Program-made: the position numbers and the translations under genes | The notes under the pieces: model-generated | Databases searched by the model: none | Told to the model about the DNA's origin: nothing | The model's input: the letters and a program-made list of their open reading frames with translations, nothing else | Shown: in pieces, positions 23,915-26,143 of the stretch | Position numbering within the stretch: the first letter of the stretch is position 1 | How the letters are laid out: each line of letters opens with the position of its first letter | DNA from: Limosilactobacillus gorillae | GTDB taxonomy: Bacteria > Pseudomonadota > Alphaproteobacteria > CAAGCB01 > CAG-977 | DNA: 64,000 nucleotides | NCBI GenBank assembly: GCA_963604715.1 | Contig: CAVCSV010000005.1 | Coordinates: 1,516 to 65,515, forward strand | Direction: 5' to 3'

Positions 23915-25006
23915 TCAGGTCAGCAGTCCCGAAATGTCGCGGACGACATCGTCATCGGGGGCTTTTACCTTGGAAAGCGAATCCTCAAGCGTTTTGATTT
24001 CGTCGGGACCTCCCGCGTCGTGACGGCAGACGGCGACTTTCAGATTATCCCACACTTCGAACATATCTTCGGCGTTGATAATCGTGCCCTGACGGATGAC
24101 GACCATGGGTTTGACCTCCATGCCGCGCGCCGCGCCAGACAGCATCGGGATTAACGCGTCGCGCGCGTTCAAAACGACACGGACGGGCGAAATACGGTGG
24201 TTGCTTTCGGAAAACCACAACGGTTCTTCGTCGTTGAAGCGTTCTTCGTCAGCCAGCCAATCGCCGTTTTCCGAATCGACCAGACACAGCAGCAGATGAT
24301 TGGCGCAAACACCGACAAAATCAATGGCTTTGCCCGCGATTTTAACATCCGACAACAGCTTGTATCCCGCGGAACGCAAAGCGTCGCCGATGGAAGACTC
24401 TCCGCTTCCTTTTGAAGCCGCCGTTGAAGAAGCGGCGGGCTTCGGCGCCGATTTTTTGGATTCGGGCGCGGGTTCGGGTTTGTGCTTGTGTTCTTTGTGC
24501 TGTTGTTCCTGCGCCTTTTCCGCGTGTTTCTTTTCTTCCGGTTCTTTTTCCTTTTCTTTGTCGGCGGCTTTGGCGACGCGCCCCGTTGCGGCGCGCACGG
24601 CGGCGGGGCGGGTTTGTTTGTAGGATTTACGCTTGGTTATTTTCGGACGAACGGTCTGAGCGTGGCGTTCTTTGTGTTTTTTCCAAAGCTGTTTCAGCAG
24701 TTTCCACGGAAAAGTCAGAATGATTTTGAACCATTTCGTCCATTCGACCGTCGACAAAATCGCCCAGCCCGTCAGCCATGCGGGAATGGCGGCGAACAGC
24801 AGTAAAACGAACATCCATTCGCGCAAAGACGTTATCGTCCAGCCCTCTTGCCATTGACGCTGCAGATAATGCCAATGAATTTTGTCAAACGGGTTGAAAC
24901 GCCAAAACGCCAGCATCAGCTTTTGAAACCAAAAAGCGTATCCCCACGACCAAACCAAAAAAATGGCGAATGCGCGGCTGAAGGATAAAGCGAATTTCAT
25001 GGACAA
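23915..25006 (-). CDS. membrane-anchored protein, paralog A: Trp-rich 2-3 TM N-terminus, Lys/Glu/Pro-rich linker, C-terminal NERD-like (restriction-endonuclease-fold) domain
   Basis: Paralogous to the next gene (FNPFDKIHWHYLQRQWQEGW versus FWKFDLFLSRHWNLILRKWNAGW; IDFVGVCANHLLLCLVDSENGDW versus INLLAVTQDGLFMLCSGPENGTAW); NERD assignment is by remembered pattern only. Confidence 0.5.
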   Translation of the reverse strand: MSMKFALSFSRAFAIFLVWSWGYAFWFQKLMLAFWRFNPFDKIHWHYLQRQWQEGWTITSLREWMFVLLLFAAIPAWLTGWAILSTVEWTKWFKIILTFPWKLLKQLWKKHKERHAQTVRPKITKRKSYKQTRPAAVRAATGRVAKAADKEKEKEPEEKKHAEKAQEQQHKEHKHKPEPAPESKKSAPKPAASSTAASKGSGESSIGDALRSAGYKLLSDVKIAGKAIDFVGVCANHLLLCLVDSENGDWLADEERFNDEEPLWFSESNHRISPVRVVLNARDALIPMLSGAARGMEVKPMVVIRQGTIINAEDMFEVWDNLKVAVCRHDAGGPDEIKTLEDSLSKVKAPDDDVVRDISGLLT

Positions 25007-25018
25007 CCTCCTTTGCCG

Positions 25019-26143
25019 TCAAAGCCGTTCGGAATTCATCAAACTCAGCACGGCGACGGCGACGGCGTCGCTCAAAGCCCTGTCGGCTTTCGGCAAAGAT
25101 TGGATGTATTCAATCAGCGCGCCCGTGTCGGGCAGTTCCGCCATTTTGCAACTGCCCGCCCGCAGGACGGACAAATCGGCCGTTGTTAAATAATTCAGCA
25201 TGGTGTCGGCGTTTGAAACCGTTCCGTGATCCAACAGCAGACAGCCGTTGACAGCCAAATTGCCGTAAGCGGGGGATGACGCGGCAATCAATTTTCTCAG
25301 TTCGTCCCGCCCTTTAATCAGCATTTGCAGCGGGGACGGCAAAGACTGCCCCTGTTCCGTTTTCCAGACATGCGCGTTTTCGTCGACAGTCCAAGCGGTG
25401 CCGTTTTCGGGACCCGAACACAGCATAAACAGTCCGTCCTGCGTTACGGCAAGCAGATTGATATGGCAGTTGACAAGCGACATTTCACGCAAAACGAAAG
25501 TCCCCGCGCTTTCCAGCTGTTTTGCCAGATTGTCCCAAATCTGCGAACGTGACAGCGCTTCGTTTTCCATACGGACTCCGCCGTTGTCCGCCACGGGCTT
25601 TTCAGCCGAGCCATGCTGCTGCAGCGTCGACTGCATGCCGCGCAAACGAACCAGTTTGTCGGGCAGTTTTTGAGCGGTGTGTTTCGGAGCGGGGGCTTTT
25701 TTCAGTTTTTCGGGATTGCCGACCGCCGCCGCCAGCGATTTTTTTTCCAATTCTTTTCTTTTGCGCTTTTGCAACGGTTCAAGCGGCAGGCTCAGTACTT
25801 TCATCCAGCGGATTTTGTAAACCGCAAACCATACGATTAAAACAATCAGAGGCAATGCCGTCAGCGAAATCAAAAAAGCGTATTCGCCCGTTTTGTTGAC
25901 GACCCAGCCCGCGTTCCATTTGCGCAAAATCAGGTTCCAATGCCTGCTCAGAAAAAGGTCGAATTTCCAAAAATGCAAAAAATAAGCGCGCGCAACCGCT
26001 CCTGTTGCCGCAACAGCCGTCAAACCGGAAAACACAAGCCGCGAAAGTTTTACTTTTTTCAATGTCAAAGCGCCCTCAAAAGTCCGTAACAACTTGATTA
26101 TAAAATACAGGATACAAGACGGGATGTCAAAAATAAAGGGCAA
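25019..26143 (-). CDS. membrane-anchored protein, paralog B (same architecture as 23915..25006)
   Basis: See paralog A. Confidence 0.5.
   Translation of the reverse strand: MPFIFDIPSCILYFIIKLLRTFEGALTLKKVKLSRLVFSGLTAVAATGAVARAYFLHFWKFDLFLSRHWNLILRKWNAGWVVNKTGEYAFLISLTALPLIVLIVWFAVYKIRWMKVLSLPLEPLQKRKRKELEKKSLAAAVGNPEKLKKAPAPKHTAQKLPDKLVRLRGMQSTLQQHGSAEKPVADNGGVRMENEALSRSQIWDNLAKQLESAGTFVLREMSLVNCHINLLAVTQDGLFMLCSGPENGTAWTVDENAHVWKTEQGQSLPSPLQMLIKGRDELRKLIAASSPAYGNLAVNGCLLLDHGTVSNADTMLNYLTTADLSVLRAGSCKMAELPDTGALIEYIQSLPKADRALSDAVAVAVLSLMNSERL

Follow-up and report, generated by a model that had tools for sequence, protein, structure and literature searches.

Paired membrane-anchored proteins with NERD-like domains encoded upstream of virD4 in uncultured gut Alphaproteobacteria

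What might two adjacent genes for membrane proteins with NERD-like domains contribute to a type IV secretion locus? In the window (the whole 64,000-nucleotide stretch of DNA analysed here), genes A and B are located between three virB6 paralogs and virD4, which encodes the type IV coupling protein. The recruitment of substrates to VirD4 by effector-translocating type IV systems beyond the model organisms is poorly understood, and next to nothing has been established about what NERD domains do in bacteria; the conserved pair before virD4, apparently tethered to the membrane, is a concrete candidate for a coupling-protein partner, and the acidic-hairpin subfamily of NERD domains to which it belongs offers a sharply defined site. 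The reading preferred here, tentatively, is that A and B form a heteromeric inner-membrane accessory of the VirD4 coupling-protein module of a chromosomal type IV secretion system. The features concerned, all on the minus strand, are as follows.

26176..26207, minus: terminator-like hairpin, 14 pairs and a T run, closing an upstream 334-aa gene (consensus scan, pattern match only)
26102..26130, minus: promoter-like site TTGACA-17-TATTTT just 5' of the B start (consensus scan, 10/12, pattern match only)
25019..26068, minus: gene B, divergent paralog of A, 349 aa from TTG 26068 (TTG 26143 in the ORF list)
25724..26068, minus: membrane module of B, residues 1-115 of the 349-aa form (alignments; model helices 2-34, 41-52, 60-85)
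25022..25549, minus: degenerate NERD-like C-terminal domain of B
23915..25000, minus: gene A, 361 aa from ATG 25000 (TTG 25006, 363 aa, in the ORF list)
24653..25000, minus: Trp-rich membrane module of A, residues 3-118 (AlphaFold pLDDT >90, hydropathy, invariant columns)
24401..24652, minus: disordered K/A/E/P-rich tether of A, residues 119-202 (pLDDT <50 at 136-202; composition)
23918..24400, minus: C-terminal NERD-like domain of A, restriction-endonuclease fold, residues 203-363
24185..24277, minus: D244-S-E246 of A followed by the acidic hairpin GDWLADEERFNDEEPLWFSESNHRISP, residues 244-274 (invariant or near-invariant columns; subfamily signature)
21431..23785, minus: virD4, 784-aa type IV coupling protein with a very acidic C-terminal tail, 129 nt downstream of A
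20374..21417, minus: 347-aa gene, PQPQPYA repeats and a conserved C-terminal domain, 13 nt after virD4 (ORF list)
19936..20370, minus: 144-aa YrhA/SUKH-type protein of the immunity-protein kind, 3 nt after the 347-aa gene (NCBIfam NF038335)

The locus and its linkage to virD4

Both open reading frames of the preliminary description are present on the minus strand (gene A, 23915..25006, 363 aa; gene B, 25019..26143, 374 aa, in the ORF list), and their translations contain the four peptide strings quoted there. Judged from the sequence, the start of A is most likely ATG 25000 rather than TTG 25006, because AGGAGG is found 6 nt 5' of this ATG and the orthologs of A begin with MK; residues of A are numbered here on the 363-aa form. 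B most likely starts at TTG 26068, giving 349 aa, because most of its nine orthologs (313-369 aa) start at the equivalent codon and because the promoter-like site and the terminator-like hairpin overlap the longer frame. This hairpin upstream also suggests that the transcription unit begins at B. No tRNA or Rfam family was found in the window.

The co-orientation of the pair upstream of virD4 was confirmed, the product of the latter gene being a bona fide VirD4/TraG protein (PF02534, 4e-58; PF12696 (TraG-D_C), 1e-20; PF10412 (TrwB_AAD_bind), 2e-17). Comparative genomics bears out the suggestion that orthologs flank virD4: an A-like gene directly precedes virD4 on the same strand in 79 of 79 uncut loci (one per species representative) of uncultured gut Alphaproteobacteria, with a median gap of 75 nt (250 nt or less in 74 of the 79) and at identities ranging over the loci from 32% to 85% for A and from 58% to 96% for VirD4. 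Species genomes with relatives number at least 307 and were sampled from the guts of humans, ruminants and other animals. The core gene order is kept while the outer flanks differ among loci L001, L003, L005 and the window, and in L001 the genes virB8, virB9 and virB10 are located about 4-10 kb upstream.

An unlikely but substantial alternative is that A and B make up a complex of the envelope or membrane that has no part in secretion, such as a factor for the cell envelope or morphology of the SmdA kind, and that their adjacency to virD4 is the inherited order of one lineage. The loci are chromosomal, with housekeeping genes in the flanks, and three distant homologs of the same architecture are encoded without virD4: at L089, where a tandem pair is followed by genes of 493 and 928 aa in a far-clade neighbourhood; at L090, after the atp F0 operon; and at L091, next to rRNA methyltransferase genes. 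Thus, the family predates, or can exist without, the virD4 link, and some of the far-clade synteny is simple vertical inheritance, because it includes housekeeping neighbours (L003 versus L089). The combination of transmembrane segments with NERD domains is also common in bacteria, and pXO1-01 of Bacillus anthracis has an N-terminal hydrophobic helix (PMC12702573). Against this alternative, all 79 loci show the core order on one strand, with very short gaps, despite rearranged flanks, mere inheritance would not usually keep such an order down to 32% identity, and the unit is situated inside type IV secretion gene islands in both the window and L001.

The preliminary description had ventured that the pair might be a new membrane module of this type IV locus, an idea that paralogs without such linkage would weaken, and these three homologs do so in part: the tie to virD4 is tight in the gut clade, but the module is not intrinsically a type IV secretion part, because homologs occur without virD4 and the C-terminal domain is also found in unrelated architectures outside any secretion locus. 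The A/B pair is probably an unstudied accessory of the secretion machine; if the link to virD4 were inherited gene order only, it would represent a routine lineage-specific NERD protein.

A-like proteins were found on none of 72,556 plasmids and in no viral contigs; the closest VirD4 from a plasmid shares 35% identity, and its gene is preceded by the usual virB8-virB11 set. The window ORFs scanned included neither a relaxase nor any other gene for DNA transfer, and the literature searched contained no functional link between NERD domains and VirD4 or other coupling proteins.

Downstream, the 347-aa gene, putatively in the same operon as virD4, follows it in most loci of the nearer clade, and its product is possibly an effector or toxin. 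It has no match in Pfam or NCBIfam and no significant match in the PDB, and none of its 85 homologs contains an informative Pfam domain. No known toxin was recognised in its C-terminal domain, the best PDB match (the DNase region of pyocin AP41, E=0.56) not being significant. The 144-aa protein scores 65.7 bits against NF038335 (cut-off 55) and is conserved along with the 347-aa gene. If the secretion system delivers this adjacent toxin-like protein, A and B would bear on competition among gut bacteria.

Membrane modules, tether and NERD-like domains

As the preliminary description had proposed, A and B are paralogs (BLASTP E=2e-16, 23% identity over ~310 residues, spanning both the N- and C-terminal blocks). 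A has 936 homologs, the nearest 98% identical. The Trp-rich N-terminus is borne out for A (14 Trp in 118 residues), while that of B has 6 Trp in 115; the AlphaFold model of A places helices at 2-35, 42-53, 61-86 and 89-118, with invariant alignment columns at W35, F37, W52, E63, F66, W89 and P100, and the motif W-x-F-D ... H-W ... W-x-x-G-W of the B module is common to A. Residues 90-130 of A include 14 Lys and Arg. The linker of A, described earlier as K/E/P-rich, indeed contains 18 K, 15 A, 10 E and 8 P in 84 residues, and it opens with the basic motif KKSYKxxRPxxxR, in which K127, S128, Y129, K130, R133, P134 and R138 are nearly invariant. The N-terminal membrane domain of VirD4, like the A/B module, has two helices and a Trp-rich loop; derivation of the module from this domain was considered and rejected (BLASTP E=0.15; hhalign of the family alignments, E=0.26).

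Pairing is general in the family. A co-oriented ORF ends 0-200 nt before the A-like gene in 80 of 80 loci, and 72 of these upstream ORFs contain the membrane-module motif W-x-F-[DNH] near residue 30-42, 26 of them being full length and 46 comprising the membrane module only (156-171 aa, as in L003). The B-type protein of the larger sister clade lacks the C-terminal domain altogether.

With A and B themselves, nothing meaningful was found in Pfam, NCBIfam or PADLOC, nor any type IV secretion family, and the PDB, searched by sequence with A, with B and with the full-length and C-domain profiles, yielded low-complexity or chance matches only. Queried directly with NERD (PF08378), A is unmatched even at E up to 1 and B at E up to 0.1. 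Among orthologs, however, NERD is the commonest Pfam match (18 of 35 aligned members at E up to 1, best E 2.4e-7), and two exceed its gathering score of 22.1 bits: P0103 (31.7 bits, model positions 15-111 of 111) and P0065 (25.7 bits, 17-111 of 111), the latter aligning with A at 42% identity over 99% of its length. A third relative, P0046, is named 'NERD domain-containing protein' by NCBI. The AlphaFold models of both A and B match restriction-endonuclease-fold structures, a similarity whose absence would have counted against the preliminary description, and the C-terminal domain is predicted to contain the alpha-beta-beta-beta-alpha-beta restriction-endonuclease-like core. Fold matches in this domain are of nuclease type, others lie in the membrane helices at low Z, and no known coupling-protein partner is among them. 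The C-terminal block is therefore assigned to the NERD, PD-(D/E)xK-like group through the Pfam matches of orthologs together with the fold, because the direct profile match to pXO1-01 is weak (hhalign over 34 columns, E=0.033, probability 1.5%).

The register of the motif was anchored on pXO1-01, the founding NERD protein, by that weak hhalign match (E=0.033) and ungapped model coordinates. In this register A does not show the canonical D ... (D/E)-x-K signature: it reads D229 ... D244-S-E246, with Glu at the Lys position. The earlier observation that the Lys is absent thus stands, but its position corresponds to the Glu of D244-S-E246 and not to the Gly of the ENG that had been taken to replace E-x-K. 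All 33 A-type sequences share an invariant D244, E246 and hairpin, and 31 of them keep D229, the other two orthologs having S or A. In B-type proteins residue 229 is N, S or T, residue 244 is G and residue 246 varies, B itself having N for D229 and G for D244 (N ... G-P-E). An inactive nuclease, as suggested earlier, is likely in the case of B, where all three acids are lost; A apparently keeps an all-acid triad. Active restriction enzymes have Lys (EcoRV), Gln (BglII) or Glu (BamHI: D94/E111/E113) at the Lys position, and Glu in A is no proof of inactivity, because all-acid variants such as BamHI can be active.

The most conserved element of the domain is the acidic hairpin WLADEERFNDEEPLWFSE, followed by IINAEDM, and on alignment evidence the two together define a NERD subfamily ('WLADEE-hairpin') of which 402 cluster representatives were counted at E up to 1e-3. 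The domain occurs in fusion with AAA+ ATPases (P0258, P0268, P0260), is found inside TPR-Roc-COR-TIR proteins (P0186, P0201), and is encoded directly after the gene for an FtsH-like AAA+ protease in Akkermansia-type contigs. The AAA+-fused and FtsH-adjacent proteins have lost the canonical triad and kept the hairpin, and the Roc-COR-TIR proteins have kept D-x-E and the hairpin and lost the first Asp. Of the 45 representatives that have the two-helix module, 38 show D at the first Asp position and 41 show D or E at the next acid; at the Lys position, 35 have E, K, Q or D and 10 have V, I, S or T.

These patterns bear on a second alternative, that A is an active membrane-tethered metal-dependent nuclease with a BamHI-like all-acid site (D229, D244, E246) and B its pseudo-enzyme partner, nucleic acid being processed at the cytoplasmic face of the secretion system, either readied for export or, if entering, destroyed. 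The fold and the NERD family, the strictness of D244 and E246 and near-strictness of D229, the acids mostly kept in the 45 representatives, and a Glu that is compatible with activity all suit such an enzyme, and an active enzyme with a degenerate paralog is a common pattern; moreover, the NERD domain of TbLrRP2 is needed for RNA processing (PMC12702573). It is nevertheless considered improbable. The hairpin is kept in the AAA+-fused and FtsH-adjacent proteins, which lack the triad, and in the Roc-COR-TIR proteins, which lack its first Asp; V, I, S or T occupies the Lys position in 10 of the 45 representatives, D229 is replaced in two A-type orthologs, DNA-transfer genes are absent among the window ORFs scanned and A-like proteins from the plasmids and viral contigs searched, and no bacterial NERD protein has a biochemically shown nuclease activity (PMC9040797).

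A proposed role at the coupling protein

If A and B are instead an accessory of the VirD4 module, their Trp-rich two-helix membrane modules would pair in the membrane, and the remainder of both proteins would be cytoplasmic, on the same side as the VirD4 ATPase, as the K/R-rich stretch after the second helix predicts by the positive-inside rule. A disordered tether of 80-150 residues would let the NERD-like domain of A sweep the cytoplasm near the secretion entrance. A would be the working subunit, its functional site being the invariant acidic surface formed by D244-x-E246, the hairpin and IINAEDM. B would be a scaffold partner of which the membrane module alone matters, because its C-terminal domain has lost the acids and is absent in the larger sister clade. 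The NERD-like domain is, in our view, most likely a recognition or regulatory module for the ATPase, whose target would be nucleic acid, a substrate signal or some basic ligand; cleavage of the canonical restriction type seems less probable, given that other architectures lacking the nuclease triad keep the hairpin. The strictness of D244 and E246 in A-type proteins is equally compatible with catalysis, a point against the accessory role.

Operon-like linkage to the coupling-protein gene, taken as a criterion of this functional class, was found in all 79 uncut loci, and the searches of Pfam, NCBIfam and PADLOC and the fold comparisons relate A and B to none of the known coupling-protein accessory factors (DotM/DotN/IcmSW, CagZ, TraM and similar). 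A bolder extension, distinctly doubtful, is that the WLADEE-hairpin NERD subfamily is a widespread partner module of P-loop NTPase machines and the A/B heterodimer a new coupling-protein receptor in gut Alphaproteobacteria, whose acidic hairpin would capture basic effector signals, possibly those of the toxin-like 347-aa protein, and pass them on to VirD4.

An entry-exclusion or self-protection device of the secretion system, conceived by analogy with the exclusion proteins of conjugative plasmids, would suit the inner-membrane location directly upstream of the coupling-protein gene and the toxin/immunity-like pair downstream, but is highly improbable, as A and B resemble no exclusion protein family, the family is absent from plasmids, and the large conserved domain would be cytoplasmic, whereas the exclusion proteins, small inner-membrane products of genes next to those for coupling proteins on conjugative plasmids, work by contacts in the periplasm or the membrane.

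Comparison with known systems

The closest likeness is to NERD proteins and pXO1-01, in the fold, in the order of landmarks (I-D-x-hydrophobic strand, (D/E)xK strand, G-x-W ... W ... (S/N)-P helix) and in an N-terminal membrane anchor. Unlike typical NERD domains, A and B fall below the threshold, A has Glu for the Lys of E-x-K, B lacks the triad, the hairpin has turned into the invariant acidic motif, and IINAEDM is new after the next strand. The anchor of A and B, in contrast to that of pXO1-01, is a Trp-rich two-helix module and not a single helix, and a long disordered tether has been inserted. AF1548, NucS/EndoMS, Hjc and the Can2/Card1 nuclease domains share only 9-19% sequence identity, and A differs from PD-(D/E)xK proteins in its all-acid site, its membrane tether and its lack of a DNA-binding accessory domain.

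DotM (IcmP), reportedly described by Meir et al. in 2018, is an inner-membrane component of the coupling complex; it has N-terminal helices and a cytoplasmic domain, and it recognises charged signals of effectors. Its likeness to A and B, which have no type IV secretion Pfam match, is analogy only, DotM being all-alpha and basic whereas the A/B domain has a restriction-endonuclease fold and is acidic. If the receptor role suggested above were true, A and B would correspond in function to DotM, but with a nuclease fold and the opposite charge.

Membrane-anchored NERD proteins acting in complexes have precedents in SmdA (PMC9040797) and TbLrRP2 (PMC12702573). SmdA of Staphylococcus aureus has an N-terminal anchor and a cytoplasmic domain with partial, degenerate NERD similarity, and it works within a membrane-associated machine rather than as a demonstrated nuclease; the likeness is one of architecture, by description, and SmdA differs from A and B in its single helix, its lack of a partner paralog or a secretion link, and its lineage. 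TbLrRP1 and TbLrRP2 of Trypanosoma brucei are two membrane-anchored proteins in one complex, of which the transmembrane-anchored NERD partner is active and the other a scaffold, a division of labour like that proposed for A and B; they differ in that the partner is a DEDDh protein and not a NERD paralog, the membrane is that of the ER and nuclear envelope, and the substrate is rRNA.

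The paralog pair and its surroundings

Both reading frames of the preliminary description, here called A and B, are present on the minus strand with the quoted peptides in their translations, and the co-oriented gene downstream of them does encode a genuine VirD4/TraG coupling protein. The genes concerned are the following:

23915..25006, minus strand: A, 363 aa in the ORF list
25019..26143, minus strand: B, 374 aa in the ORF list
21431..23785, minus strand: virD4, VirD4/TraG coupling protein gene (PF02534, 4e-58; also TraG-D_C and TrwB_AAD_bind)
within 19936..21417, minus strand: 347-aa gene, starting 13 nt after virD4
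within 19936..21417, minus strand: 144-aa YrhA/SUKH-type gene, 3 nt after the 347-aa gene (NCBIfam NF038335, 65.7 bits, cut-off 55)
26221..27225, minus strand: 334-aa gene beyond B, co-oriented, without family match
27312..28439, minus strand: 375-aa gene upstream of B, co-oriented, without family match
28568..33212, plus strand: three tandem VirB6/TrbL paralogs (529, 484 and 457 aa)

A and B are paralogs, as had been proposed, over both their N-terminal and C-terminal blocks (BLASTP E=2e-16, 23% identity over ~310 residues). The true start of A is most likely ATG 25000, since AGGAGG lies 6 nt before it and A orthologs start MK..; B most likely starts at TTG 26068, and most of its orthologs (n=9, 313-369 aa) start at the equivalent codon. 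The longer B reading frame is overlapped by a putative terminator hairpin (26207-26176) and by TTGACA-17-TATTTT, which resembles a promoter (26130-26102); both are pattern matches only, and they suggest that a transcription unit starts at B.

For A, AlphaFold (mean pLDDT 79.5 with a 35-sequence alignment) gives a model of four confident helices (residues 2-35, 42-53, 61-86 and 89-118), a disordered tether (119-202) and a confident alpha/beta domain (203-363; in order, helix, three strands, helix, strand), a plan shared by the B model (mean pLDDT 71). The N-terminus of A is indeed Trp-rich (14 Trp among the first 118 residues), and hydropathy indicates a single strong membrane segment at ~61-86, preceded by a weaker one rich in aromatic residues. 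By the positive-inside rule, the 14 Lys+Arg of residues 90-130 would place the tether and C-terminal domain in the cytoplasm. A near-invariant basic motif of A, KKSYKxxRPxxxR, comes right after the membrane module, and VirD4 ends in an extremely acidic ~80-residue tail with D/E runs (residues ~705-784; 21431..21670, minus strand); being opposite in charge, the two could make contact. In the larger and more distant of two clades of virD4-linked loci (the far clade), tethers of A-like proteins carry acidic-aromatic repeats, FDHSLFKFDEDEDFDFDFDAFDD, where the window protein is K/E/P-rich (L003 10001..11329 and others; alignment A1 columns 230-270); these repeats may act as a short linear motif for binding.

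PQPQPYA repeats mark the 347-aa protein, whose conserved C-terminal domain contains His-rich motifs (GYHHINE ... HPYHNEIH); its 144-aa neighbour belongs to an immunity-protein type, and the two genes follow virD4 in most loci of the nearer clade. They look like a toxin/immunity or effector/immunity pair, which, if true, suggests an antibacterial secretion system; the best PDB match in a search for a toxin domain in the 347-aa protein, the pyocin AP41 DNase region, was not significant (E=0.56). Very large proteins without family assignment are encoded at 47724..52076 (plus strand; 1450 aa with an LPD7 'polyvalent protein' domain), 34410..38222 (plus strand; 1270 aa, coiled-coil-like) and 8759..12901 (minus strand; 1380 aa), and could be secretion substrates. 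The 334-aa protein, encoded between the 375-aa gene and B, is Lys/Glu-rich, low in complexity and poorly conserved. The C-terminal region of the 375-aa protein (approximately the last 80-150 residues), which matches no family, has conserved counterparts at most loci, L089 without virD4 included, at a distance of 2.5-3 kb on the upstream side of the A-like gene. The third VirB6/TrbL paralog (457 aa) has no Pfam match and matches the first at E=2e-25. Beside the virB6 genes is a gene for a 330-aa protein with two HTH_3-type domains (33337..34329, plus strand), which resembles the Wolbachia Wmk family weakly, with a match (E=8e-10) that falls far short of the cut-off; L006 has a comparable double-HTH protein of 328 aa at its edge. 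The remainder is ordinary chromosomal sequence, with an isoleucyl-tRNA-synthetase-like gene and genes for a sigma factor, an ABC-F protein and an autotransporter. Across the window, neither tRNA genes nor Rfam families were found.

Linkage to virD4 and pairing

A-type proteins gave 936 matches, only from uncultured Alphaproteobacteria. Scanning one genome per species located relatives in 307 stretches, and the counts that follow are for the best 80, which are MAGs recovered from the guts of humans, ruminants, horses, rabbits and chickens and named, for example, Acetobacter sp. CAG:977, 'Azospirillum sp.' and Ca. Scatocola. In 79 of the 80, a same-strand VirD4 homolog (58-96% identical) follows the A-like gene, and at the 80th the contig ends there; the gap has a median of 75 nt and is <=250 nt in 74 loci. 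Four loci (L023, L026, L028 and L030) have an extra 317-aa gene in the gap, the product of which (e.g., L028 7099..8052) has an N-terminal membrane region like the VirD4 N-terminus (29-38% over ~80-120 residues, tblastn). The outer flanks are unlike among the window, L001, L003 and L005; thus, the core has been retained through rearrangements. No A-like genes were found on 72,556 plasmids or in viral contigs, and the closest plasmid VirD4 (35% identical) has virB8-virB11 upstream instead.

The earlier proposal of a membrane module belonging to this secretion locus is partly contradicted by three more distant homologs away from virD4: a tandem pair at L089, preceded by a relative of the 375-aa gene and followed by 493-aa and 928-aa genes; a single copy following the atp F0 operon (L090); and a tandem pair beside rRNA methyltransferase genes (L091). 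These homologs have the same architecture, and the family is thus older than the virD4 association or separable from it. The rival explanation that A and B form an unrelated membrane complex, adjacent to virD4 through inherited gene order, appears rather unlikely.

At all 80 loci an ORF in the same orientation stops 0-200 nt short of the A-like gene, and 72 of these ORFs encode the W-x-F-[D/N/H] motif of the membrane module. In the nearer clade (26 loci with the motif) the upstream ORF is full length and B-type (339-387 aa); in the far clade (46 loci with the motif) it is reduced to the membrane module alone (156-171 aa; e.g., L003 9440-9928), so it is the module that evolution has preserved at the B position. 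A membrane heterodimer would be consistent with this, with A supplying the working cytoplasmic domain.

The NERD-type domain and its acidic hairpin

Neither A nor B reaches a Pfam family by sequence. Among 35 family members scanned singly, NERD (PF08378) was the commonest match (18 members, best E 2.4e-7), and two full-length orthologs exceed its gathering score of 22.1 over almost the whole model (P0103, 31.7 bits; P0065, 25.7 bits). The control, the founding NERD protein pXO1-01, scores 115 bits and has an N-terminal hydrophobic helix too. The endonuclease-fold similarity suspected from the first reading is, therefore, present, and the fold of the C-terminal domain is of the NERD type.

When the active site is anchored on pXO1-01 (..QIDHIVI..GVFVVETKNYEGW..RW..NPF..) and on ungapped model coordinates, D229 of A lines up with the first Asp, and D244 and E246 with the Glu and Lys of E-x-K, a register that is only probable because the direct profile match behind it is weak (E=0.033). 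A would thus probably have an all-acid triad. Such a site can be active, as in BamHI (D94/E111/E113). D244 and E246 are invariant in A-type sequences (33/33) and D229 is found in 31/33. B-type proteins are degenerate, with N/S/T at position 229, always G at 244 and a variable residue at 246, and B is very probably non-catalytic. Of 45 cluster representatives that share the two-helix architecture, 38 have D at the first Asp position and 41 have D/E at the second acid; the Lys position is occupied by E (24), V (5), K (4), Q (4), D (3), S (2), T (2) or I (1).

The strongest conservation is not in the triad itself but in the hairpin after it (G-D-W-L-A-D-E-E-R-F-N-D-E-E-P-L-W-F-S-E-x-x-H-R-x-S-P), and in G-(T/N)-I-I-N-A-E-D-M, which follows the subsequent strand. 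An exhaustive C-domain profile search found 402 cluster representatives at E<=1e-3 (200 at E<=1e-10), and the two-helix module is present in many of the 150 representatives listed. The hairpin-bearing domain is also found mid-protein in TPR-Roc-COR-TIR proteins of ~1500 aa (P0186, P0201), N-terminally in AAA+ ATPases (P0258, P0268, P0260), and in 515-aa proteins, one from an Akkermansia MAG, encoded directly after an FtsH-like AAA+/M41 protease gene, which they abut or nearly abut in Akkermansia-type contigs. Pfam recognizes the domain in none of these three groups, and no secretion genes were found in the neighbourhoods examined. Loci L087, L088, L094 and L095 also belong to these cases. All of them retain the hairpin, but the first Asp is missing from the Roc-COR-TIR proteins, which keep D-x-E, and the whole triad from the AAA+-fused and FtsH-adjacent ones; the domain accordingly forms a distinct NERD subfamily with the acidic hairpin as its conserved site. 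Its recurrence with P-loop NTPases (AAA+, Roc, FtsH-like) suggests a general recognition or regulatory partner of NTPase machines. It seems unlikely that A is an active tethered nuclease with B as a pseudo-enzyme partner.

Proposed role and comparison with known systems

We tentatively favour the reading that, in this clade, A and B serve the VirD4 module as accessory subunits in the inner membrane. Paralogy, architecture, fold, the degeneracy of B, the pairing at every locus and the close, conserved linkage to virD4 are established by the analysis. The two would heterodimerise via their membrane modules and contact VirD4, the acidic hairpin would serve for binding or regulation and not as a catalytic centre of the restriction type, and the coupling ATPase would be the NTPase machine partnered here. 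That A and B are a device for exclusion or self-protection is very unlikely.

Published work describes bacterial NERD domain function as essentially unstudied (PMC9040797, PMC12702573); of two membrane-anchored NERD proteins, SmdA has a non-nuclease role (PMC9040797) and TbLrRP2 a nuclease-dependent one (PMC12702573). Among the papers searched, none linked NERD domains to coupling proteins.

The VirB6/TrbL paralogs of the window, and the duplicated virB8 genes and 2205-aa VirB10-like protein of L001, resemble the scattered, paralog-rich type IV systems of Rickettsiales, and the bacteria here are free-living Alphaproteobacteria of the gut with ~53% GC. A and B are, at the family level, a pair of NERD / PD-(D/E)xK-fold proteins, a family in which a membrane anchor is common. 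What is new in them is the subfamily signature (acidic hairpin, IINAEDM, a triad that is all-acid or lost), the long-tethered anchor of two Trp-rich helices, the second membrane module as an obligatory partner, and the strict placement before virD4 across a whole gut lineage.
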